Positions 2,366-45,649 of a stretch of 64,000 bases of DNA are shown one piece after another. The DNA comes from Escherichia coli (GTDB lineage: Bacteria > Pseudomonadota > Gammaproteobacteria > Enterobacterales > Enterobacteriaceae): assembly GCF_024298765.1 (NCBI RefSeq), contig NZ_CP101210.1; one strand, written 5' to 3'. The notes under the pieces were generated by a model. That model did no database searches, had not been told where the DNA came from, and saw only the letters and a list, made by a program, of their open reading frames with translations. Numbering within the stretch: the stretch's first letter is position 1; each line of letters starts with the position of its first letter. A program made the position numbers and the translations under genes.

Positions 2366-2899
2366 ATGAACGCAAAAATCAGATACGGCCTGTCGGCTGC
2401 CGTTCTGGCACTGATTGCCGTCGGTGCGCCCGCGCCTGATATTCTCGACCAGTTTCTGGATGAAAAAGAAGGTAACCACACAACGGCATACCGCGATGGT
2501 TCCGGCATCTGGACCATCTGTCGGGGTGCCACGATGGTGGATGGAAAACCCGTTTTTCCCGGTATGAAACTGTCGAAGGAAAAATGCGACCAGGTCAACG
2601 CCATTGAGCGTGATAAGGCGCTGGCATGGGTGGAGCGCAATATTAAAGTACCACTGACCGAACCACAAAAAGCGGGTATCGCGTCATTTTGTCCCTATAA
2701 CATTGGCCCCGGTAAGTGTTTTCCATCGACGTTTTATAAGCGGCTGAATGCTGGTGATCGTAAGGGCGCATGCGAGGCGATTCGCTGGTGGATAAAAGAT
2801 GGTGGGCGCGATTGCCGCATACGTTCAAATAACTGCTATGGACAGGTTATTCGTCGTGACCAAGAAAGCGCATTAGCCTGTTGGGGAATAGATCAGTGA
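2366..2899 (+). CDS. SAR endolysin (T4-lysozyme-like muramidase with N-terminal signal-anchor-release domain)
   Basis: N-terminal hydrophobic Gly/Ala-rich segment [16 protein letters not shown]; catalytic E-x8-D-x5-T motif [16 protein letters not shown]. Confidence 0.9.
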
Positions 2900-3363
2900 G
2901 CAGAGTCGCCGCGATTATTTATGCTCTGGTTATCTGCATCATCGTCTGCCTGTCGTGGGCGGTCAATCATTACCGTGATAACGCCATCACCTACAAAGAA
3001 CAGCGTGATAAAAAAGTCAGTGAGCTGAAGCAGCTGACCGCCACCATCGCTGACATGCAGCAGCGTCAGCGTGATGTTGCTGCGCTCGATGCAAAGTACT
3101 CGAGAGAATTAGCCAATGCGAAAGCTGAAAATGAAACTCTGCGCGCTGATGTTGCCGCTGGTCGTAAGCGCCTGCGGGTCAATGCCAGTTGCTCCGCAGC
3201 CGTGCGTGAAGCCACCGGACCCACCAGCGTGGATAATGCAACCAGCCCCAGACTGGCAGACACCGCTGAACGGGATTATTTCACCCTCAGAGAACGGTTG
3301 ATGACGATGCAGAAGCAACTGGAAGGGGCACAGCTATACATTCGTGAGCAATGTCTCAGATAA
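2896..3363 (+). CDS. Spanin, inner-membrane subunit Rz (GTG start assumed)
   Basis: Strong similarity to lambda Rz as recalled; N-terminal TM helix then coiled coil. Confidence 0.85.
3116..3301 (+). CDS. Spanin, outer-membrane lipoprotein subunit Rz1 (embedded in Rz, +1 frame)
   Basis: Lipobox LVVSAC, proline-rich body, similar to lambda Rz1. Confidence 0.85.
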
Positions 3364-3518
3364 AAACCGGCCAAGGATAATCCGCTAAAGATTCGCCGGT
3401 GGCGAAAGAGAGCCAAGGTGTCAACCTACGCTATTACTTATGATAATGCAACAGACGAAGCGGGACATATTGGCGCATAACAAATCAGTGCAGGCTAACT
3501 GCAGGAAGAACTTAGGGC

Positions 3519-3785
3519 GTGAACGTAGAAAACCTAAGTAACGCACATTACATCTATAACGAGATGAAAGAGCTACAGCGACAGAAAGGTATACTGGAAA
3601 GTGGTGCAGGGCTTGGTGTGACAATCCAGTCTGCCTATCAATATAGTGCTTTTCTTGAGGCCATACGCCCGCATGCAGTTGCTGAACTTAACAGCCGTAT
3701 TGAGGAAAAGAAATCCGCGCTGGTTAATTTGGGTGCTTCCTTCTCTATATACGAGCATAATAAGGCGGGTTGGAAACCCGCCTAA
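3519..3785 (+). CDS. Hypothetical protein (88 aa from GTG; 73 aa from internal ATG)
   Basis: ORF only; weak RBS; convergent with downstream minus-strand gene. Confidence 0.35.
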   Translation: MNVENLSNAHYIYNEMKELQRQKGILESGAGLGVTIQSAYQYSAFLEAIRPHAVAELNSRIEEKKSALVNLGASFSIYEHNKAGWKPA

Positions 3786-3790
3786 AGCAC

Positions 3791-4330
3791 TTAGAAACTG
3801 CGTGGAGCTGTGGAAAGAATGGATGCCAGTTCTTCCTTCGATAAATCCCAGCTTCGATTTACAGCGTCAATTTTCTTAAACTCATCAAGCATTGCGTTAT
3901 AGAGATGTTCTGTACGTGAATGAGTATTGGCAATGGGCTGTTTCTGTTCGGGGAAGCGATCAATTTTCTGATATGCCTCAATGATACTGAAGTAATCGCA
4001 TTCATTATTACCGTCGAAACCTGGGAGCTGAATTGCCCCATCATGTATTTTTAGATGATGGTCACGGACTAATTCTTTTTGCTCGTCATCACTAAGTTTC
4101 CTGAAAGCATTGGAAAGTCCGCGATACATATTCAAGACAGCAGTAACAAAATCACGATCTTCTTTACTTGGTTCGTCAACATCCAAATGTGAATATTCGG
4201 CCTTGATAACCCAATCATTACCAGATGACACAGCATATTTAACAAGCTGTGGATCAATATCAGTTTCGATACCTAGGTGGATGGCAATGTCACATAACAA
4301 AATGGTATTGATTTTATCTTTAATATCCAT
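3791..4330 (-). CDS. Accessory (moron) protein, 179 aa, resembling YfbU/UPF0304 family; reverse strand at the lambda bor position
   Basis: Own RBS AGAGGG and promoter-like upstream region; motif pattern MY..L, GFD, C-terminal region reminiscent of YfbU (from memory, unverified). Confidence 0.5.
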   Translation of the reverse strand: MDIKDKINTILLCDIAIHLGIETDIDPQLVKYAVSSGNDWVIKAEYSHLDVDEPSKEDRDFVTAVLNMYRGLSNAFRKLSDDEQKELVRDHHLKIHDGAIQLPGFDGNNECDYFSIIEAYQKIDRFPEQKQPIANTHSRTEHLYNAMLDEFKKIDAVNRSWDLSKEELASILSTAPRSF

Positions 4331-4468
4331 GAGTTAACCCTCTGAAGTAAAAAGTAATATCTACACCCGTTGGCTCATGAAGTCTATTGATCTGTCTCAT
4401 ATCAGCAGCAAATCTATTCCATGGAGATACTCAATGCAGGTCACCTTTGATTTATATAAGGGCGAAAC

Positions 4469-4819
4469 ATGCCAGCACTAATCCCACGCGCCTGCCGTAA
4501 GCGTGGATGTGCAGGTACAACCACAGACAGTTCTGGTTACTGCGATAAACATCGTGGCGAAGGATGGGTACAGCATCAACGCGGACTGAGCCGCCACCAG
4601 CGTGGCTATGGCTCGAAATGGGATGCCATACGTGCGCGCATACTGAAGCGTGATAATCATCTGTGTCAGAACTGCCTGCGCAATGGGAGAGCCGTTGAAG
4701 CCAGAACTGTGGACCACATCATTCCGAAAGCTCATGGTGGCACGGATGCAGACAGTAACCTGCAGAGTCTGTGCTGGCCCTGTCATAAAGCAAAAACAGC
4801 GCGCGAACGCATCAATTGA
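4469..4819 (+). CDS. HNH endonuclease (terminase-associated)
   Basis: Cys-rich N-terminus and H-N-H signature DHIIPKAHGGTD...N...LCWPCH. Confidence 0.85.
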   Translation: MPALIPRACRKRGCAGTTTDSSGYCDKHRGEGWVQHQRGLSRHQRGYGSKWDAIRARILKRDNHLCQNCLRNGRAVEARTVDHIIPKAHGGTDADSNLQSLCWPCHKAKTARERIN

Positions 4820-4967
4820 TAACAGCTCCCATCTGCAGGGGAGGGGCGGGTCAAATCTCTGCAACCCTGGCTGTTCAGTACCGCCGCCTGACCCTTCCTC
4901 ACATCGCCGCAGGTTCGAAAACTTTTTTTTGGAAATGTGAACAAACGATTGATAGGTAAGACCGATT

Positions 4968-5450
4968 ATGTCAGGACCTCCGAAAACCCCGCCACGCCTG
5001 CATTTGATACGAGGCAACCCCTCAAAGCGCCCCGTTAAAGACCACAAAAAAACCGCTAAAAAGGATGAAAAAGGTCTTCCTAAAATTCCGCAGCATTTAG
5101 GGGCTCAGGGGAAGTACTGGTTCAGGCGAATGGCGGAAGAGCTGAATGCGGAAGGGATCATTTCTCAGCTTGATGCGCGTGCGCTCGAGTTGCTGGTGGA
5201 AGCCTACACCGAATATCGGCATCACTGCGAAACACTCGATGTTGAGGGGTATACCTACCGCACGGAAACGCAGAGCGGTGATGTACTGATTAAGGCGCAC
5301 CCCGCGGCGGCAATGAAAGCGGATGCCTGGAAGCGGATCCGGGCAATGCTTGCAGAGTTTGGTATGTCACCGGCAAGCCGGGCTAAAGTAAATATCGCCG
5401 GACCGGATGATGTTGATCCGCTGGCGGAGCTTTTAAAAGCGAGAGACTGA
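4968..5450 (+). CDS. Terminase small subunit (P27 family-like)
   Basis: Position upstream of and overlapping TerL start; typical basic N-terminus. Confidence 0.8.
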   Translation: MSGPPKTPPRLHLIRGNPSKRPVKDHKKTAKKDEKGLPKIPQHLGAQGKYWFRRMAEELNAEGIISQLDARALELLVEAYTEYRHHCETLDVEGYTYRTETQSGDVLIKAHPAAAMKADAWKRIRAMLAEFGMSPASRAKVNIAGPDDVDPLAELLKARD

Positions 5451-7207
5451 TGGCAAAAGTGGCTGACGGGATCCGCTACGCCGAACGTGTTGTTGCAGGA
5501 GAAATTGTTGCTGGCGAATTTGTCCGCCTGGCCTGCCAGCGTTTTCTTGATGATCTGAAGTACGGCGAAGAGCGGGGGATTTATTTCAGTGAACCCCGTG
5601 CGCAGCACATCCTGAATTTCTACAAATTTGTGCCTCATGTAAAAGGGGCGCTGGCAGGCCAGCCCATTGAGTTGATGGACTGGCATGTATTTATCCTCAT
5701 TAATATTTTTGGTTTTGTCATTCCGCTGGTCAATGAAGAGACCGGGGAAGTTGTCATGCGCAGCGATGGCAGCGGACGTCCGGTGATGGTGCGCCGGTTC
5801 CGGACGGCGTACAACGAAGTCGCCCGTAAAAACGCAAAATCAACTCTGTCATCGGGTATCGGCCTGTATATGACGGGGGCAGATGGTGAAGGCGGAGCTG
5901 AGGTGTATTCAGCCGCAACCACGCGTGACCAGGCCAGAATCGTGTTTGAAGACGCCAAAAATATGGTCAGAAAAGCCCGGTCGACACTCGGGCGGTTGTT
6001 TGATTTCAACAAGCTGGCGATTTACCAGGAGCAGAGCGCATCAAAATTTGAACCGCTTTCTTCGGATGCAAACAACCTAGATGGTCTGAACATCCACTGC
6101 GCCATTATTGATGAGCTGCATGCACATAAAACCCGTGACGTGTGGGACGTTCTGGAAACGGCAACCGGTGCCCGTCTGCAGTCCCTTTTATTTGGTATCA
6201 CCACGGCAGGGTTTAACAAGGAAGGGATTTGTTACGAGCAGCGTGATTACGCCATCAAGGTATTGCGTGGCTATAACAGCGACGTGGAGGGCGCGGTAAA
6301 AGACGACTCCTACTTTGCGATTATTTACACCCTCGATGAGGGAGATGATCCGTTTGATGAAACGGTCTGGCAGAAAGCGAATCCCGGCCTGGGCATCTGT
6401 AAACGCTGGGATGATCTGCGTCGCCTGGCGAAAAAAGCGAAAGAACAGGTCTCTGCGCGGGTGAATTTTTTTACCAAACACATGAATGTGTGGGTAACAG
6501 CAGAGTCTGCCTGGATGGACATGATTAAGTGGGAGAAGTGCGAATACATTGCCCCACGACATGAGCTGAAAACGTATCCCATGTGGGTCGGCGTTGACCT
6601 TGCTCATAAGATTGATATCTGTGCGGCGGCAAAACTCTGGCGAACGGATAACGGGCATGTTCATGCCGATTTTAAATTCTGGCTTCCGGAAGGACGGCTG
6701 GAACGATGCTCGCGGCAGCAGGCAGAACTTTACCGGAAGTGGGCGGAGATGGATAAGCTGATTCTGACGGATGGTGATGTTATCGATCATGCTCAGATAA
6801 AAAGTGACTTACTGGAATGGATTGGTGGTGAAAACCTCAGGGAACTGGGATTTGACCCGTGGAGCGCGATGCAGTTCAGCCTGGCACTGGCTGAAGAAGG
6901 GATACCGCTGGTGGAGGTTCCGCAGACGGTTCGCAATCTGTCAGAGGCCATGAAGGAAACGGAATCACTGGTCTATGCCGGGCGTTTCCATCACAGCAAT
7001 CATCCGGTCATGAACTGGATGATGTCTAACGTTACGGTAAAACCGGACAAAAACGACAATATCTTCCCGAATAAATCCACGCTGGAAGCCAAAATCGACG
7101 GCCCTGTTGCGATGTTTACAGCAATGAGCCGGATGCTGGTCAATGGTGGTGAACCGGAGCTGGATCTGTCTGAACATCTGGTCAGCGTGGGCATCCGCTC
7201 GCTTTAA
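5450..7207 (+). CDS. Terminase large subunit
   Basis: 585 aa, ATPase plus nuclease architecture, positional. Confidence 0.9.
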
Positions 7208-7218
7208 CCGAGGTCATT

Positions 7219-7401
7219 ATGTTTCTGATAATTCTCGCGCCACTGGTGGGCGTGCTGGGTGCGCTTTTGCTGGCGTATGGTGCCTGGCTGATTTATCCCC
7301 CGGCGGGTTTTGTTGTTGCCGGGGTGCTGTGCCTGTTCTGGTCGTGGCTGGTGGCGCGATATCTCGACCGTACACAGCCGTCTGTCGGCGGAGGTAAATA
7401 G
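7219..7401 (+). CDS. Small hydrophobic protein (60 aa, two predicted TM helices)
   Basis: ATG with GAGG RBS; between TerL and portal. Confidence 0.45.
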
Positions 7402-8642
7402 TGTTCTTTTCGGGATTATTTCAACGAAAAAGTGACGCGCCGGTGACCACGCCAGCAGAGCTGGCGGATGCCATCGGGTTGTCTTACGACACCTATACCG
7501 GAAAGCAGATCAGCAGTCAGCGGGCCATGCGACTGACGGCGGTTTTTTCCTGCGTCAGAGTGCTGGCAGAGTCGGTCGGGATGTTGCCCTGCAATCTGTA
7601 TCACCTGAACGGCAGCCTGAAACAGAGGGCCACCGGCGAACGTCTGCATAAGCTGATCTCCACGCATCCCAATGGCTATATGACGCCGCAGGAGTTCTGG
7701 GAGCTGGTGGTCACCTGTCTGTGCCTGAGGGGAAACTTTTACGCCTACAAAGTGAAAGCATTTGGCGAAGTGGCTGAACTGCTGCCCGTCGATCCCGGTT
7801 GTGTGGTACCGAAGCTTAACAGTCGCTGGGAGCCGGTCTATCAGGTCACATTCCCGGACGGTTCCACGGATGTACTGAGCCAGGAAGATATCTGGCATGT
7901 GCGCACGCTGACGCTGGACGGTCTGGTGGGACTGAATCCCATCGCCTATGCCCGCGAGGCAATATCGCTGGCAGCAGCGACCGAAGAGCACGGGGCCAGA
8001 CTGTTCAGCAATGGTGCGGTGACGTCCGGTGTGTTGCGTACAGAACAGACGCTGTCGGATCAGGCTTATGAGCGCCTGAAGAAAGATTTTGAGGAGCGTC
8101 ACACCGGGCTTGGCAATGCTCACCGCCCGATGATCCTTGAGATGGGGCTGGACTGGAAGTCGATGGCGCTGAACGCCGAGGACAGCCAGTTCCTGGAAAC
8201 CCGCAAGTTTCAGCTTGAAGAAATCTGTCGTCTGTTCCGGGTGCCGTTGCACATGGTGCAGAACACCGATCGCGCCACCTTCAACAATATCGAAGAGCTG
8301 GGGCTGGGATTTATCAACTATTCACTGGTGCCGTATCTGACCCGCATCGAACAGCGGATCAACACCGGACTGGTACGAAAAAGTAAGCAGGGCGTTTATT
8401 ACGCCAAATTTAACGCCGGGGCGTTACTGCGCGGGGATATGAAGTCCCGTTTTGAAGCCTACGCCACCGGGATCAACTGGGGAATTTACTCTCCCAATGA
8501 CTGCCGCGACCTGGAAGATATGAATCCGCGTCCCGGTGGTGATGTCTATCTCACACCGATGAACATGACCACGAAACCCTCCGATGGCAGTAAAGCCGGT
8601 AAGCAGAAGGATAACGCCAATGCAGACGAAACAACGTCTTGA
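7401..8642 (+). CDS. Portal protein (HK97 family), GTG start
   Basis: 413 aa; GGAGGT RBS; position and size. Confidence 0.85.
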   Translation: MFFSGLFQRKSDAPVTTPAELADAIGLSYDTYTGKQISSQRAMRLTAVFSCVRVLAESVGMLPCNLYHLNGSLKQRATGERLHKLISTHPNGYMTPQEFWELVVTCLCLRGNFYAYKVKAFGEVAELLPVDPGCVVPKLNSRWEPVYQVTFPDGSTDVLSQEDIWHVRTLTLDGLVGLNPIAYAREAISLAAATEEHGARLFSNGAVTSGVLRTEQTLSDQAYERLKKDFEERHTGLGNAHRPMILEMGLDWKSMALNAEDSQFLETRKFQLEEICRLFRVPLHMVQNTDRATFNNIEELGLGFINYSLVPYLTRIEQRINTGLVRKSKQGVYYAKFNAGALLRGDMKSRFEAYATGINWGIYSPNDCRDLEDMNPRPGGDVYLTPMNMTTKPSDGSKAGKQKDNANADETTS

Positions 8643-11840: not shown

Positions 11841-12181
11841 GAGAGACCACACTGTATTCCCTGCTGTCTCAACTGGCCGGAGGACAGGTTTATCCTTATG
11901 TGGTCCCGCTGACGGAGGGAAAGCCTGCGGTATCTCCGCCATGGCTGGTATTTTCTGTGGTGTCTGACACTGCGTCTGATGTGCTTGATGGTCAGGCTGA
12001 ATCCAGAATTACCGTGCAGATCGATGTCTGGGCAACAGTACCTGATGACGCAGATGATATCCGTGAGCAGGCGCTTGATGCGGTAAGGCAACTTGCACCC
12101 TCCGTTATTTCTAAAACTCAGGGTTATGATCCTGATTCCCGTCTGAGCAGAGCCACGCTTGAATTTCAGGTAATAGCCTGA
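11837..12181 (+). CDS. Tail completion protein (gp11/DUF3168-like)
   Basis: Positional. Confidence 0.6.
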   Translation: MRETTLYSLLSQLAGGQVYPYVVPLTEGKPAVSPPWLVFSVVSDTASDVLDGQAESRITVQIDVWATVPDDADDIREQALDAVRQLAPSVISKTQGYDPDSRLSRATLEFQVIA

Positions 12182-12202
12182 GGTCGTTAATGATTTTACC
12201 CA

Positions 12203-12228
12203 CCCGCCGCTGGCGGGTTTTTTATTTT
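12203..12228 (+). terminator. Hairpin plus T-run immediately upstream of major tail gene
   Basis: CCCGCC-GCT-GGCGGG followed by TTTTTTATTTT. Confidence 0.45.
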
Positions 12229-12240
12229 CAGGAGACGAGT

Positions 12241-12945
12241 ATGTCCTCTAATTTTGAGCGTTCGCAACTGACGAAAATTATGATTTCGTCTGCACCGGTA
12301 ACAGCAGAAACCCTGGATTCTGCCAGCTATCTTGGCCTGAGCTGTACAATCAAAGAGGTGCAGTTTACCGCAGGACAAAAGCAGGATATTGATGTCACCA
12401 CGCTGTGTTCTGTTGAGCAGGAAAATATTAACGGCCTTGGTGCCGCGTCAGAGATTTCCATGTCAGGCAACTTTTACCTCAATGCTGCCCAGAACGCGTT
12501 GCGCAGTGCCTATGACAATGCCACCACGTATGGCTTTAAAGTTATTTTTCCGTCAGGCAACGGATTTACCTTTATGGCAGAGGTGCGTCAGCATACCTGG
12601 TCTGCAGGAACTAATGGTGTTGTGGCTGCAACGTTTTCCCTGCGCCTGAAAGGTAAACCTGTGCTGACGACAGAGCCGCTGAAAGTGAAGGTCGATTTAA
12701 ACAGCACGCTGCAGGTTTCTGCCGGAGCGAAACTCGAAATGGTGGTTGAGGCTGCCGGTGGTGTGCCGCCTTATTCTTATGTCTGGAAGAAAGGTAGTTC
12801 TCCTGTTTCCGGACAGACGGCGGCAACATTCAGTAAGGCATCAGCAGCATCAGGTGATGCCGGTGCGTATACCTGCGAGATTTCTGATTCAGCAAGCCCT
12901 GTTAACAAGGTGACCTCCACTTCCTGCACTGTTACCGTCAGTTAA
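12241..12945 (+). CDS. Major tail tube protein with C-terminal Ig-like domain
   Basis: RBS CAGGAGACG; C-terminal beta-rich Ig-like segment; position before G/GT. Confidence 0.85.
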   Translation: MSSNFERSQLTKIMISSAPVTAETLDSASYLGLSCTIKEVQFTAGQKQDIDVTTLCSVEQENINGLGAASEISMSGNFYLNAAQNALRSAYDNATTYGFKVIFPSGNGFTFMAEVRQHTWSAGTNGVVAATFSLRLKGKPVLTTEPLKVKVDLNSTLQVSAGAKLEMVVEAAGGVPPYSYVWKKGSSPVSGQTAATFSKASAASGDAGAYTCEISDSASPVNKVTSTSCTVTVS

Positions 12946-13331
12946 TGAGGATAGATGTGATGACTAAAAATATCCGCAATCTGGCACTGGCAACGATGTC
13001 GGGGTTTCGCCATAAAACTGTTGATGTGCCTGAATGGGAAGGGGCAACGGTTGTATTACGGGAACCTTCTGCAGAAGCCTGGTTGCGCTGGCAGGAGATC
13101 GTTAAAGCAAAAGATGATGAGACACCGTTATCCGTTGCGGAGCGCGCCCGCCGAAATCTGGAGGCAGATGTTGAACTGTTCATTGATGTTCTGTGTGATA
13201 CCGGACTGCAACCTGTATTTTCAGAGGATGATCGTGAACAGGTGATTGCCGTGTATGGCCCGGTGCATGCGCGGCTTCTTCGGCAGTCTCTGGAACTGAT
13301 CAGTGATGCCGGCGAGGTTAAAAAAAAGTAG
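12945..13331 (+). CDS. Tail assembly chaperone G
   Basis: Position before tape measure; ends at slippery heptamer. Confidence 0.8.
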   Translation: MRIDVMTKNIRNLALATMSGFRHKTVDVPEWEGATVVLREPSAEAWLRWQEIVKAKDDETPLSVAERARRNLEADVELFIDVLCDTGLQPVFSEDDREQVIAVYGPVHARLLRQSLELISDAGEVKKK

Positions 13332-13633
13332 AGCTTCCGGGGATGCGTTTTCTGATGATGCTGGCGCTCAGGATGGGGCGCACATTGTCAGAGTTACGCC
13401 GGGAAATGTCCGCATCAGAAATCATGATGTGGGCAGAATTTGACAGGTTCAGCCCGCTGGGTGACGAGCGGGCTGATATCCGGGCTGCCCAGATAGTTTC
13501 TGCGGTTTACGGTGCGCAGGGTGTCAAAGTCCCACTGAATGATGCGCTTCTTCAGTGGGAACAAGAGCAGACAGAAGGCGTCTCAGATCCATTTGCCGGA
13601 CTGGAAAACGCGCTTTTAATAGTGTCTCAGTGA
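13322..13633 (+). CDS. GT extension produced by programmed -1 frameshift at A AAA AAG (13322-13328)
   Basis: Slippery heptamer at end of G; -1 frame open through ORF 13343-13633. Confidence 0.75.
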   Translation, partial: KKVELPGMRFLMMLALRMGRTLSELRREMSASEIMMWAEFDRFSPLGDERADIRAAQIVSAVYGAQGVKVPLNDALLQWEQEQTEGVSDPFAGLENALLIVSQ

Positions 13634-13641
13634 GTCAACAT

Positions 13642-13662
13642 AACCGCTTCGGCGGTTTTTTT
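13642..13662 (+). terminator. Hairpin plus T-run after G/GT
   Basis: AACCGC-TTCG-GCGGTT followed by T7. Confidence 0.5.
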
Positions 13663-13672
13663 CGTCCGGAGA

Positions 13673-16600
13673 ATGAGTGTGGCGACATTACGTGAACTGA
13701 TTATTAAAATCTCGGCAAATTCCCGGTCATTCCAGTCAGAGATCTCCCGGGCTTCGCGTATGGGGCTGGATTACTACCGTACCATGCAGAACGGAGGCCG
13801 GCAGTCCGCTGCTGCATCCCGTGAAATGCGGCGTGCACTGGCAGAAGTGACGGATCAGATAAATACAGCTAAATCTTCGGCACTGAATATGGCGGGGGCA
13901 TTTGCCGGAGCTTTTGCTACCGGTCATCTTATTTCTCTCGCCGATGAGTGGAATTCAGTAAATGCCCGTCTGAAGCAGGCTTCACAGTCCAGTGATGATT
14001 TTCAGGTATCACAACGTGAATTAATGGCAATCAGCCAGAGAACGGGAACGGCGTTTTCTGATAACGCCAGCCTTTTTGCCCGCTCTGCAGCTTCCATGCG
14101 GGAGTATGGCTACAGTTCTGAGGAGGTACTGAAAGTCACCGAGGCGATCTCCACGGGCCTGAAATTATCCGGTGCCAGTACAGCAGAAGCCAGTTCGGTG
14201 ATCACGCAGTTCAGTCAGGCACTGGCGCAGGGAGTGCTGCGCGGTGAAGAATTTAACTCTGTGAATGAGAACGGCGATCGTGTTATTCGTGCGCTGGCTG
14301 CGGGAATGGGTGTTGCCCGTAAGGATCTGAAGGCCATGGCGGATAACGGAAAACTGACCGCCGATAAGGTTGTTCCTGCACTGATTAGTCAGCTTGGGGC
14401 GTTGCGTGATGAATATGCAGCAATGCCTGATACTGTTTCATCCTCTGCAACCAAAGTTGAAAACGCCTTTATGGCCTGGGTTGGTGGTGCGAACGAGGCA
14501 AGCGGAGTGACAAAGACACTCACCGGGGTGTTGAATGGTGTTGCAGACAATATTGATACCGTGGCTGCTGCAGCTGGCGCACTGGTTGCCGTCGGGGTAG
14601 CCCGATATTTTGGCAATATGGCGTCGTCTGCTGGATCTGCAACTGCCGGATTAATTACTGCAGCCAGAAACGAAGTGGCTCTTGCTGAAGCGCAACTTCG
14701 GGGGACACAGATAGCAACCGCCAGGGCGCGTGCGGCGGTTTATCGTGCGCAACAGGCGGTTGTTGCTGCTCGCGGTACCGAAAGGCAGGCCGCAGCAGAA
14801 GCGAAGCTGACAGCTGCCCAGGCGTCACTTACCCGTAATATTGCGGCCAGAACAGCGGCACAGACAACGCTGAATACTGTCACGTCAGTGGGGAGTCGTC
14901 TGTTAAGTGGTGCGCTGGGGTTGGTTGGTGGTGTGCCGGGACTCGTCATGCTGGGGGCGACGGCCTGGTACACGATGTATCAGAATCAGGAGCAGGCCAG
15001 AGAATCTGCACGCCAGTATGCCGCAACAATCGACGAAATTCGCCAGAAAACGTCGGCAATGTCGCTTCCTGAAGCGTCAGATAATGAGGAAAAGACGCGG
15101 CAGGCACTTGATGAGCAAAACAGGTTAATTGACGAGCAGAAAAGTAAGATTAAATCCTTACAGGAAAAAATTGCTGGCTATCAGTATGTGCTGGCAAACC
15201 CGGGCTGGACAACCGATAACGGTTTTATGATTAACCACATGACGTCGGTAAAAACTGTCACAGAAGGGCTTGCAGAAGCAACAAATCAACTGGCAGTTGA
15301 ACAGTCCCGTCTCACACAAATGCAGGGCAAAGCGCAATCCATTCAGGATGTGCTTGCCGGGCTGGAGGAGCGACGGGGGGCGTTGATCCGTCAACAGGCC
15401 GCGGAACAAAACAAAGCGTATCAGTCCCTGTTGATCATGAATGGGCAGCATACCGAGTTTAATCGCCTTCTCGGGCTCGGTAATGAATTACTTCAGCAGC
15501 GACAGGGGCTGGTGAATGTACCGTTACGGCTACCACAGGCAACCCTGGATGATAAACAGCAGACCGCACTGAATAACAGCGAGCGCGAACTGGCTCTGTC
15601 CCGCCTGAAGGGGGAAGCCCGTGAGCGTGCCCGCCTGGGTTATGCTGCGGATGATCTCGGCTTTGTGGGAGAGGCGTATCAGACAGCCAGACAGAATTAT
15701 ATCAATACCTCACTGGATGCCTGGCGAAATAACCAGGTAAATAAACCCAAAGCGCATAAAAAGACCGAAGCGGAAAAAACAGAAGATATTTATAAACGGC
15801 TGATTAAACAGCAAAAAGAACAAATAGCACTGGCAGGGCAGAATACTGAACTGGCTAAGATGAAATATCAGGTCAGTCAGGGCGAATTATCAACCCTGTC
15901 AGAAGCGCAGAAAAAAACGCTTTTGCAGAATGCAGCACTCATCGACCAGAAAAAGGTTCGTGAGCAGCTTGCTGCGTATGAGAGCAGTCTGGCGGACAGT
16001 AATGCCAGTGCCCGGGCATCTGACGAAGCGCAGTTGCTGGGATATGGTGAAGGCTCACGGATGCGTGAACGACTCCAGGAAATGTGGAGTATCCGGCAGG
16101 CGTTTGAGCAGAAAAATAACGAGCTGCTGAGACAGTATCAGGCCGGAGAAATTGAAGAAGCCCTGTGGAAACAGGAGAAAGAACTGAATAAAAAATATCT
16201 GGAAGAGCGTCTCAGTGATCAGCAGGATTATTATGCAAAGGCCGATGCTTTACGTAATAACTGGAATGCCGGACTCCAGGAGGGACTGACCAACTGGGCA
16301 GACAGTGCCACCGATTATGCTTCACAGGCGGCAGATGCTGTCGTTTCCACGATGGACGGGCTGGTATCAAATATTTCCGATGCACTGGCCGGGAATGTTG
16401 TGGACTGGAGGAACTGGGGGAGTTCAGTTCTCCGGGAAGTTTCAAAAATTCTGATGAATGCAGCCATTGTTAACGGACTGAAATCACTCTCCGGTGCCGG
16501 AGGGTGGCTTGGTACGGTCGGCGGATGGATTTCGGGGGCAGTGGCAAACGCAAAAGGTGGTGTTTACACATCGGCAAATCTGAGTGCTTACAGTAACACT

Positions 16601-26814: not shown

Positions 26815-27395
26815 TGGCATTCAGAATGAGTGAACAACCACGGACCATAAAAATTTATAATCTGCTGGTCGGAACTAATGAATTTATTGGTGAAGGTGAC
26901 GCATATATTCCGCCTCATACAGGTCTGCCAGCAAACAGTACCGATATTGCACCACCAGATATTCCTGCTGGCTTTGTGGCTGTTTTCAACAGTGATGAGG
27001 CATCGTGGCATCTCGTTGAAGACCATCGGGGTAAAACGGTTTATGACGTGGCTTCCGGCGACGCGTTATTTATTTCTGAACTCGGTCCGTTACCGGAAAA
27101 TGTTACCTGGTTGTCGCCGGGAGGGGAATATCAGAAGTGGAACGGCACAGCCTGGGTGAAAGATGCAGAAGCAGAAAAACTGTTCCGGATCCGGGAGGCG
27201 GAAGAAACAAAAAACAGCCTGATGCAGGTAGCCAGTGAGCATATTGCGCCGCTTCAGGATGCTGCAGATCTGGAAATTGCAACGGAGGAAGAAACCTCGT
27301 TGCTGGAAGCCTGGAAAAAGTATCGGGTGTTGCTGAACCGTGTTGATACATCAACTGCACCGGATATTGAATGGCCAGTAGCACCTATAGGGTAA
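26814..27395 (+). CDS. tfa: Tail fibre assembly protein Tfa
   Basis: Positional immediately after stf; size 193 aa. Confidence 0.85.
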
Positions 27396-37135: not shown

Positions 37136-37235
37136 ATAAAAAAGCCGGCATCATGCCGGCCCAAAAAATATAAACAAGACGATAAAAGGCTAATAACGGA
37201 GGCATCATGACACAGAAAAATAAAAAGGTATAATT
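37136..37235 (-). ncRNA. Candidate small RNA in yedS-yedR intergenic region (possibly RseX)
   Basis: Minus-strand hairpin GCCGGCATGATGCCGGC followed by TTTTT; CCUCC anti-SD-like stretch upstream; RseX location recalled, sequence not verified. Confidence 0.3.
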
Positions 37236-45562: not shown

Positions 45563-45649
45563 AACACATCAGATTTCCTGGTGTAACGAATTTTTTAAGT
45601 GCTTCTTGCTTAAGCAAGTTTCATCCCGACCCCCTCAGGGTCGGGATTT
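45563..45649 (+). ncRNA. dsrA: DsrA small regulatory RNA
   Basis: Sequence AACACATCAGATTTCCTGGTGTAACG...CCCGACCCCCTCAGGGTCGGGATTT matches DsrA as recalled, including terminator. Confidence 0.9.

Follow-up and report, generated by a model that had tools for sequence, protein, structure and literature searches.

A YfbU-family gene antisense to the late operon of a lambdoid Escherichia coli prophage: a moron cassette with a possible anti-phage role

The structure of YfbU, whose crystals contain 16 chains, was solved in 2004 and, to our knowledge, the function of the YfbU fold is still unknown. The chromosomal E. coli gene has been called a "death gene", acting only under DNA damage, and is reported to be needed for mazEF-dependent death triggered by such damage (PMC2646832). 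Besides this chromosomal form, the Pfam family PF03887 includes proteins of a mobile type, of which the only tested one is Kamadhenu (pUCCL624_130; BioProject PRJNA1086404), a protein of 180 aa that acts as a single-gene abortive-infection system and is encoded on Lactococcus plasmids (PMC11381338). Phage mutants that escape Kamadhenu map to a Sak-like single-strand annealing protein (SSAP) of the phage (PMC12184496). In searches of the literature on YfbU, PF03887 and UPF0304, we found no paper dealing with the enterobacterial clade carried by prophages that is considered here. By location, the closest described genes are the morons bor and iss of lambda and related prophages, which encode outer-membrane lipoproteins that confer serum resistance.

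We analysed a 64,000-nucleotide stretch of E. coli DNA (hereafter the window), in which the host element of the genes of interest is a lambdoid prophage with HK97-type head genes. Its lysozyme gene R (2366-2899) is followed on the plus strand by the i-spanin gene Rz, delimited by ORF calling (2881-3363; in phage vB_EcoS-611R1, which is 98.9% identical, its annotation reads "endopeptidase Rz"), with Rz1 embedded in it (3116-3301, plus strand). An HNH endonuclease gene (4469-4819, plus strand) precedes the terminase genes TerS (4968-5450) and TerL (5450-7207). Rz and the HNH gene form the left and right borders of a cargo slot, and the slot holds two convergent ORFs: one of 88 aa with a GTG start (3519-3785, plus strand) and a cargo gene of 179 aa with an ATG start (3791-4330, minus strand). 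The original prediction had placed such a pair between Rz/Rz1 and the HNH-terminase genes, and we could confirm its coordinates, including the 5-bp gap (3786-3790).

The same prediction had pointed to a resemblance of the 179-aa protein to YfbU, which turned out to be real. The protein matches PF03887 over residues 46-172 (E 9.2e-12), an identical protein, WP_000351660.1, is named "YfbU family protein" in RefSeq, and a profile built from 23 homologues matched the PDB entries 1WPB and 4LR3 over residues 53-173 (E 2.2e-9). The two-domain, all-helical YfbU fold extends over the full length of the protein, with TM scores of 0.67-0.74 to chromosomal E. coli YfbU (UPF0304; 1WPB, 4LR3) and a common GFD...E motif, whereas identity to the latter amounts to just 15-16%. 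In the NCBIfam equivalog test NF003936 the protein scored 34.8 bits, under the 90-bit cut-off. On sequence grounds, we class it as a member of the YfbU family but not as a YfbU orthologue. No enzymatic domain could be recognised in it.

When grouped at 50% identity, homologues of the 179-aa protein fall into 2158 clusters, whose members mostly have a length of 175-190 aa and are matched from end to end. This branch of PF03887, with proteins of about 180 aa, occurs in prophages, on plasmids and beside integrases in many phyla, and is distinct from chromosomal YfbU. In particular, chromosomal YfbU has GFDAATE and NAQ where the mobile branch has near-invariant GFDGNxE and NxH (GFDGNNE in the prophage protein). 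Furthermore, yfbU is a core chromosomal gene, while the 179-aa gene is polymorphic prophage cargo with 39% GC. Of the 150 best-ranking representatives of the family, about 20 have the YfbU domain fused to an N-terminal ribbon-helix-helix (RHH, CopG-type) DNA-binding domain; an 81-aa gene found upstream of YfbU on Acinetobacter plasmids was checked as a possible split RHH partner and proved not to be one. As for gene neighbourhoods, three single cases point towards defence, as anecdotes and not as statistics: at one related locus (L043) the gene adjoins a TIR protein matching the PADLOC candidate PDC-S66 (E 1e-113), an RHH-fused relative adjoins BrxL, and a plasmid relative adjoins an "Abi family protein".

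Around the YfbU-like gene, the sequence from about 3763 to 4410 (minus strand) forms an autonomous cassette, consisting of an upstream region, a Shine-Dalgarno sequence, the ORF and a terminator hairpin. Its orientation opposite to the late operon and its apparent self-containment had both been anticipated, and so had the ribosome-binding site: the minus strand reads AGAGGG at 4343-4338, with a spacing of 7 nt to the ATG, and the form AGAG(G/A)G is kept in homologues of 58% to 100% identity. The 80 nt preceding the ATG (4331-4410), taken to hold the 5'UTR and a presumed promoter, are as conserved across homologues as the coding sequence (0.61-0.92), and beyond this block identity falls to 0.39-0.60 (loci L042, L043 and L046). 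An AT-rich, promoter-like region had been proposed at 4331-4468. The AT-richness stood (61% A+T, versus 47-48% in the flanking phage genes), but a consensus promoter did not: a strict scan for minus-strand sigma-70 promoters in 3300-4600 gave none, and the best candidate of a relaxed scan was weak (-35 TAGACT at 4386-4381, a 19-nt spacer and -10 GATATT at 4361-4356; 8/12 matches). We therefore retain the term "promoter-like" because of conservation, not consensus.

At the other end of the cassette lies a terminator-like hairpin (3763-3783, minus strand) with a 9-bp GC-rich stem and a 3-nt loop, whose RNA is predicted to fold with -15 to -16 kcal/mol (z -3.2). On the minus strand the hairpin is followed by UUAUUAUG, and only there by a U-rich tail; what follows on the plus strand is UAAAGCAC, without a U-tract, implying that late transcription should not be stopped at this point. 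We looked at 14 homologous loci, and most of them likewise have a GC-rich stem-loop 7-25 nt past the stop codon of the yfbU-like gene. The stem sequences of these hairpins differ between loci, and T-tracts accompany them in L042, L053 and L056.

The cassette is compositionally foreign, with a GC content of about 39% as compared to about 52% in the flanks and a trough of 0.37-0.40 across 3900-4500. Its ORF shows a dN/dS of 0.07-0.13, which rules out that it is non-coding or decayed; the gene is under strong purifying selection.

Comparison of the same junction in related phages bore out the view of this site as a cargo hotspot with presence/absence polymorphism, since the slot may be empty or may contain bor or iss, a GNAT gene or yet other genes. 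In phage vB_EcoM-606R7 the site is empty, with HNH only 42 bp after Rz, while phage 716R1 carries bor there and phage PhiR49_2 another cargo. Among 5426 E. coli genomes, 207-223 (about 4% of complete genomes) have the YfbU gene at the Rz|HNH junction; others have GNAT, iss or nothing at the same place. The yfbU-like gene was antisense to late genes in 40 out of 40 IMG/VR loci. The antisense placement extends to Klebsiella homologues and to 50-58%-identical homologues in other Enterobacterales, including Providencia and Enterobacter, that are associated with lambda-type terminases. Homologues down to an identity of about 35% are antisense in the late operon, nearly all of them directly after the lysis genes, and the phages concerned belong to several genera.

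By its polymorphic junction, its own terminator hairpin and its distinct composition, the cassette (about 3763-4410) is a moron, with a lysogen-active promoter that is only putative. It resembles the bor/iss morons in occupying the slot after Rz/Rz1 and before the packaging genes, in being antisense to the late operon and in being present or absent among related phages. The product is of another kind: unlike the bor and iss lipoproteins, the 179-aa protein is cytoplasmic and helical, without a signal peptide or lipobox. As the slot also holds non-defence cargo such as bor and iss, location alone does not imply a defence function.

The 179-aa protein and Kamadhenu both belong to PF03887 and have about 180 aa, and both are encoded by stand-alone genes on mobile elements, the 179-aa gene having its own signals and no conserved neighbour. 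The likeness is drawn at the Pfam and fold level only, and the carriers differ, Kamadhenu residing on a Gram-positive plasmid and the 179-aa gene in enterobacterial lambdoid prophages. A tblastn search of PLSDB with the 179-aa protein and with a distant relative (P0096) yielded no Lactococcus match, and there was no lactococcal entry among the top AFDB50 matches. In PADLOC-DB v2.0.0 (2023), which predates Kamadhenu, neither the 179-aa nor the 88-aa protein found a match at E <= 0.1. It is only for Kamadhenu that an anti-phage phenotype, an abortive mode of action and escape by way of the SSAP have been demonstrated. Still, the Kamadhenu precedent lends support to the phage-exclusion role that had been suggested for this locus, and our best inference is that the YfbU-like gene is probably a one-gene anti-phage defence. 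Taken as a whole, the reading that we favour, at somewhat better than even chances, is that the cassette is a self-contained moron of the slot, expressed in the lysogen and conferring Kamadhenu-like protection, with the 88-aa ORF outside the system.

According to this defence reading, the YfbU-like gene would be transcribed in the lysogen and its product would, by analogy with Kamadhenu, protect the cell. The appearance of the replication or recombination machinery of an incoming phage would be the trigger, upon which the cell or the infection would be halted. The conserved W40, GFDGNxE and NxH residues are the candidate functional site. When the prophage itself enters lytic growth, late transcription antiterminated by Q would cross the yfbU-like gene in antisense and may shut it off.

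A function directed at the host and not at phages, in which the gene would serve lysogenic conversion by altering how the lysogen survives stress or responds with cell death, seems unlikely to us, although the anatomy of the cassette would suit any lysogen-expressed moron and the slot carries bor and iss as well. The natural analogue for such a role is the DNA-damage-triggered, mazEF-dependent death function of chromosomal YfbU, but the 179-aa protein falls well below the YfbU equivalog score and carries family-specific residues that YfbU lacks. Moreover, its relatives are spread across phages, plasmids, integrase-adjacent sites and many phyla, a distribution that suits a role in mobile-element conflict better than a host-specific trait, and the single tested protein of the type is anti-phage.

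Less likely again is that the gene serves the phage itself, be it as a regulator, as an antitoxin-like or counter-defence protein, or as an antisense unit that tunes read-through from lysis to packaging. The strictly conserved position in the late operon would agree with such a role, but the gene is missing from otherwise near-identical, evidently viable phages, implying that the lytic cycle can do without it; the antisense orientation and the separate terminator, for their part, argue for expression while the late operon is silent. The RHH-YfbU fusions have an architecture typical of antitoxins and autoregulators, and some plasmid relatives adjoin RelE/ParE or other toxin-antitoxin genes; against this, no adjacent toxin partner is conserved.

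The second ORF of the slot has a different history. It had been described as matching nothing recognisable, but its residues 1-76 cover the whole profile of phrog_5415 (E 2e-38), a 76-aa family of unknown function that closes the lysis cassettes of enterobacterial phages, and 276 protein clusters were matched as well. Members of phrog_5415 share the position and strand of the ORF, directly after the spanin genes. As its homologues are 76 aa long and end in SFS followed by a stop codon, the 88-aa ORF is a local stop-loss variant of this conserved late-operon gene, composed of a core (3519-3746) and a 12-codon extension (3747-3785) that runs across the yfbU terminator hairpin. Other differences from phrog_5415 are a D42Y substitution at a near-invariant position and the want of an intact upstream o-spanin gene, which the 76-aa gene normally overlaps. 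The dN/dS values are 0.12-0.18 for the 76-aa family and 0.19-0.27 for the window copy. The protein, modelled by AF2 as a two-helix (helix-loop-helix) hairpin (pLDDT 83), had no match in Pfam, NCBIfam or PADLOC and no significant sequence match in the PDB. The 88-aa ORF is a decaying, partly degenerate late gene.

Where the lysis cassette is of the GH19/GH108 type, an intact 68-aa o-spanin-like gene reaches into the beginning of the 76-aa gene. A tblastn search with the 68-aa protein of one such locus (L005) revealed a non-functional 3' remnant of it, of about 35 codons, at 3434-3541 on the plus strand of the window (72% identity over 36 aa, E 8e-18). In DNA alignments, positions 3340-3448 follow the lambda-type Rz context (L008), and from about 3449 the sequence follows L005, L007 and L062. 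The left mosaic junction of the imported block lies at about 3434-3449, marked by the o-spanin remnant. The 76-aa gene copy and the remnant came in together, on a block acquired by recombination from a phage whose lysis cassette was of another kind.

The proposal that the convergent genes form one two-component system (toxin-antitoxin or sensor-effector) accounts for two observations: the genes are neighbours at most loci of E. coli and Klebsiella, including those flanked by unlike lysis cassettes, and the 5'-truncated 76-aa copy in L037 suggests joint movement. We nevertheless consider it highly improbable, because the genes are convergent and not co-transcribed and because each is found without the other, the 76-aa gene in L005, L006 and L066/67 and homologues of yfbU at 18 loci of greater divergence. 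Moreover, beside an intact yfbU the small gene is decayed, with premature stops in L007, L019, L020, L036 and L044 and the lost stop codon and D42Y in the window. The 76-aa gene is also a pseudogene in L048, but there yfbU is split by IS5. The "module" or "pair" of the original prediction does not survive these comparisons, which largely refute a type II toxin-antitoxin or other two-gene system, with its obligate co-occurrence and co-transcription. Across loci, identity is 70-77% for the 76-aa protein versus 93-94% for yfbU, and this faster divergence is indicative of recombination between the two genes. To judge from these patterns, the 88-aa ORF does not appear to be a partner of the YfbU-like gene, even if the very frequent adjacency in E. 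coli and Klebsiella leaves room for a facultative interaction of the 76-aa gene with yfbU.

A bolder extension of the defence reading, which we put forward tentatively and regard as rather doubtful, is that the mobile YfbU-like proteins are anti-phage effectors encoded by single genes and make up a large family that has all but escaped recognition, with over 2000 clusters (at 50% identity) and with RHH-fused, probably autoregulated versions. Their activity would lie in a conserved W/GFDGNxE/NxH pocket that chromosomal YfbU lacks. The enterobacterial prophage clade would reside in the bor slot of many Klebsiella and of about 4% of the complete E. coli genomes, and its antisense placement could serve as an off-switch once the prophage itself turns lytic.

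The locus offers a worked example of a moron cassette and a neighbouring lysis-cassette fragment moving jointly by recombination. If the defence reading is true, the bor/iss slot of widespread Klebsiella prophages and of about 4% of the complete E. coli genomes harbours a common but hitherto overlooked anti-phage system that consists of a single gene and is missed by PADLOC v2.0.0 (2023), the sole defence-model library searched. Such a system would affect the host range of phages used for therapy against clinical E. coli and Klebsiella, and the enigmatic YfbU fold would gain a conserved candidate functional site that is open to mutation.

Between the lysis and the packaging genes, we found a plus-strand ORF encoding 88 aa (3519-3785, GTG start) and a minus-strand ORF encoding 179 aa (3791-4330, ATG start), which converge on a gap of 5 bp. 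Upstream of the pair lie the genes for a holin (1732-1947), a YdfR-like protein (1952-2302), a lysozyme (2366-2899) and Rz (2881-3363, with Rz1 embedded at 3116-3301); downstream are the HNH (4469-4819), TerS (4968-5450) and TerL (5450-7207) genes. Both ORFs, with their coordinates, convergence and location, matched the original prediction exactly, and the ribosome binding site assigned to the 179-aa gene (the yfbU-like gene) was also there: AGAGGG at 4343-4338, 7 nt from the ATG. This gene and its upstream stretch contain 61% A+T, as against 47-48% in the flanking phage genes, and a GC trough (0.37-0.40) spans 3900-4500.

Directly after the stop codon of the yfbU-like gene, the sequence folds into a hairpin with a 9-bp GC-rich stem (3763-3783; -15 to -16 kcal/mol, z -3.2), and what comes after it reads UUAUUAUG on the minus strand and UAAAGCAC on the plus strand. 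Given these differing tails, the hairpin is terminator-like for the minus-strand gene only, and late transcription should pass through it. Most homologous loci that we checked carry a GC-rich stem-loop at the same place, with differing stem sequences, and in some of them (L042, L053, L056) it precedes a clear T-tract. On the other side of the gene, the ~80 nt before the ATG show identities of 0.61-0.92, where the coding sequences of the homologues show 0.61-0.94; beyond that point, the more diverged loci (L042, L043 and L046) retain an identity of only 0.39-0.60, which puts the cassette's right-hand limit near 4410. The promoter-like region that had been proposed here is indeed AT-rich and conserved over ~80 nt, but a strict sigma-70 scan returned no minus-strand promoter, and the best site in a relaxed scan was TAGACT-19 nt-GATATT (4386-4356), with only 8/12 matches. 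The promoter of the yfbU-like gene is thus suggested by the conservation of the upstream stretch. Anatomically, there is little doubt that the gene forms an autonomous antisense cassette of foreign composition.

The proposed kinship of the 179-aa protein with YfbU held up: it matches the Pfam YfbU domain (PF03887, E 9.2e-12), and the identical RefSeq protein, WP_000351660.1, is named 'YfbU family protein'. A second match, to phrog_6084 (annotated as unknown function), came at E 8e-83. The NCBIfam equivalog model of chromosomal YfbU gives it 34.8 bits, below the cut-off of 90, meaning that it is a family member and not a YfbU orthologue. A confident AlphaFold2 model (pLDDT 90), built from 23 homologues, retrieved by Foldseek from the PDB solely the E. 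coli YfbU structures 4LR3 and 1WPB (TM 0.67-0.74 over ~177 columns, 15% identity). Purifying selection on the gene is strong (dN/dS 0.07-0.13 with respect to homologues 82-94% identical).

An exhaustive profile search yielded 2158 clusters (50% identity) at E <= 1e-3 and 872 at E <= 1e-10, mostly of 175-190 aa and matching the profile end to end. Among 147 representatives, W40 is kept in 100%, G104-F105-D106-G107-N108-x-E110 in 89-100%, N135 in 90%, H137 in 98% and Y144 in 84%. At the positions matching GFDGNxE and NxH, chromosomal YfbU has instead GFDAATE and NAQ, so the polar N108/H137 signature is specific to the branch of the 179-aa protein. This protein has the YfbU fold, and its branch is borne on mobile elements and set apart by a conserved polar motif. 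The protein has no required partner. About 20 of the best 150 representatives are longer (~230 aa), with an N-terminal ribbon-helix-helix (RHH, CopG-type) domain fused to the YfbU domain; examples, with the motif KTERFELRLD...PSRSEAIRRL, are the family representatives P0074, P0078, P0097, P0101, P0104, P0112, P0114 and P0117, and the product of 4737-5459 in L061.

Among phages with near-identical flanks, vB_EcoS-611R1 and 689R5 carry the yfbU block (98-99% identical), while the slot is empty in vB_EcoM-606R7 (42 bp from Rz to HNH). Five others have a 'virulence determinant' gene at the junction, which in the one examined, 716R1, is bor on the opposite strand. In PhiR49_2 (L004) the Rz|HNH junction is empty and another antisense gene lies between HNH and TerS, which indicates that cargo can also insert some hundreds of bases further downstream; that gene (3090-3605, 171 aa) differs from the yfbU-like gene and has no PADLOC or NCBIfam match. 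The full block occurs in 207-223 of 5426 complete E. coli genomes (~4%), chromosomally in every case; in other E. coli genomes the junction holds an antisense GNAT acetyltransferase gene, iss, two hypothetical genes, or nothing. A cargo hotspot with presence/absence polymorphism, as had been anticipated, is thus borne out by relatives in which the slot is empty or holds bor, iss, GNAT or the yfbU-like gene.

Cargo is also found elsewhere in these prophages. Four tRNA genes (Met-CAT, Lys-TTT, Thr-TGT, Gly-TCC) lie at 1130-1439, between the Q antiterminator and the holin, where 611R1 has Arg/Arg, 606R7 Met/Thr/Gly, strain 789 Ile/Thr and L008 Ile/Lys/Thr/Gly; given these differing sets, the Q-holin site is a second polymorphic cargo slot. 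The strain 789 prophage (L075), a close relative with the same yfbU block, carries in its early region (12094-14025 of that locus, outside the range of the window) an 'AAA family ATPase' and 'RloB family protein' pair, another defence-like cargo. Rfam matches at gathering score were IS009 (27157-27355), rseX (37137-37226, minus strand) and DsrA (45563-45649); to the right, the window probably runs past the prophage end into the E. coli chromosome.

The orientation of the yfbU-like gene is constant. In 40/40 IMG/VR loci, some with terminases just 35-72% identical, it lies on the strand opposite to the late genes around it (lysozyme, Rz, HNH, TerS, TerL, wherever within the locus), and Klebsiella pneumoniae prophages show the same arrangement. 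So do homologues 50-58% identical in other Enterobacterales, including Providencia and Enterobacter, each being the lone antisense gene in the position of lambda bor, with a different type of lysis cassette on one side and lambda-type terminase genes (Nu1-like or DUF1441 small subunit, GpA-type large subunit) on the other. Even a ~35%-identical relative is antisense, flanked by spanin-like genes and a small terminase fragment. Antisense placement, the polymorphic slot and the PF03887 match all support the core of the original prediction, a YfbU-like antisense moron in a cargo hotspot.

Other relatives occupy further settings. On two metagenome contigs (L071, ~5018-8387; L072, ~2539-5908), the Q-holin slot of a prophage holds an antisense YfbU-like gene for 185 aa, again ~35% identical; its neighbours encode a DNA methylase and a 661-aa HATPase_c_3 (GHKL) protein and are possibly a further defence-like cargo pair. 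One relative adjoins a phage-type integrase gene; others are on Xanthomonas, Raoultella, Kosakonia and Rhizobium plasmids, some beside toxin-antitoxin modules, and on small plasmids of Acinetobacter, in one case with an 'Abi family protein' as neighbour. A Xanthomonas citri plasmid encodes an RHH-fused protein whose gene adjoins that of a RelE/ParE toxin. On two small Acinetobacter plasmids (L059, 1791-2036; L077, 2081-2326), a gene for a conserved 81-aa protein (MKHPEIKPYDWIRV...), which on checking was not an RHH protein, precedes a 165-aa YfbU-family gene by ~87 nt in the same orientation; this may be a clade-specific two-gene arrangement.

As for function, chromosomal yfbU has been called a 'death gene', being required for the mazEF-dependent death that follows DNA damage (PMC2646832). 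Kamadhenu, a 180-aa single-gene PF03887 abortive-infection system of a Lactococcus plasmid (PMC11381338), resembles the 179-aa protein in Pfam family, size, fold and genetic autonomy; every Kamadhenu escape mutant maps to G22 in a Sak-like single-strand annealing protein (PMC12184496). The yfbU-like gene would be a new member of this recently described kind rather than a kind of its own. PADLOC v2.0.0 has no model for the 179-aa protein, and a full-text literature search on YfbU gave no report on the enterobacterial prophage clade. In L043 (IMGVR_UViG_3300048929_000364), the yfbU-like gene adjoins a TIR gene (578-1456) in the same slot and orientation, whose 292-aa product matches the PADLOC candidate PDC-S66 over its full length (E 1e-113) as well as ThsB-like TIR models, and an RHH-fused relative (L074) adjoins BrxL; we regard these cases as anecdotes in support. 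We give a defence function about an even chance. The gene would be expressed in the lysogen, its product acting as a single-gene anti-phage protein, abortive or exclusionary, possibly triggered, as for Kamadhenu, by recombination or replication proteins of the incoming phage; antisense late transcription may silence it in the prophage's own lytic cycle. A host-directed lysogenic-conversion function appears unlikely, and a role for the phage itself, for example as a regulator or antitoxin, as the RHH fusions suggest, is less probable still.

The 88-aa ORF, for which no match had been recognised at first, matches phrog_5415 (76-position profile) through residues 1-76, and 276 protein clusters from Citrobacter, Salmonella, Klebsiella and E. 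coli, nearly all of 76 aa. This highly conserved family (dN/dS 0.12-0.18, purifying selection) is predicted to form a two-helix hairpin. GH19- or GH108-type lysis cassettes are its usual setting; it lies at their end and overlaps the tail of a 68-aa lipobox-bearing (o-spanin-like) gene. Loci that have it but lack yfbU are L005, L006 and Salmonella L066/67, in the last of which a different antisense gene (146 aa) comes next; conversely, a family HMM detected no 76-aa gene beside the yfbU homologues of L042, L043, L046/47, L050-58, L068 and L071/72. Next to an intact yfbU, it has a premature stop at codon 41 (L007, L019, L020, L044) or 18 (L036). L048 (IMGVR_UViG_2711768076_000009) has the same codon-41 stop, but there yfbU is split by a ~1.2-kb insertion (3804-5000) encoding a 326-aa transposase, which we take to be of IS5 type. 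In L037, yfbU adjoins a 5'-truncated copy, with an intact one 1.5 kb beyond it (5585-5725 and 7107-7349), consistent with joint movement of the yfbU cassette and the small gene's 3' part. The copy in the window has lost its stop codon, so that 12 extra codons are translated through the yfbU terminator, carries D42Y at a near-invariant position, and has a somewhat raised dN/dS (0.19-0.27). With each gene occurring without the other and the small one often damaged beside an intact yfbU, the proposed pairing is not supported: a true two-gene system is highly improbable, and the 88-aa ORF, on comparative grounds, is not a partner.

The left end of the block points to its origin. Window positions 3340-3448 follow the sequence downstream of lambda-type Rz, in common with the GNAT-carrying allele; from ~3434-3449, the match is to the other cassette type, at the 3' end of its 68-aa o-spanin-like gene (72% identity over 36 codons, E 8e-18), followed by the 76-aa gene and then the yfbU cassette. 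This truncated GH19/GH108-type remnant (3434-3541), just after a complete lambda-type Rz/Rz1 pair, is a recombination scar at the left end of the block. With foreign-cassette sequence from ~3434 on, the whole block (~3434-4468) was imported by recombination; the donor was a phage with a different lysis cassette, and the small ORF arrived as a passenger.

Overall, an autonomous cassette with a defence function is the explanation we favor, by a slight tilt. As a candidate defence gene, the yfbU-like gene is common in prophages of clinical E. coli and Klebsiella and cheap to test, and through it the function of the YfbU fold could be approached.
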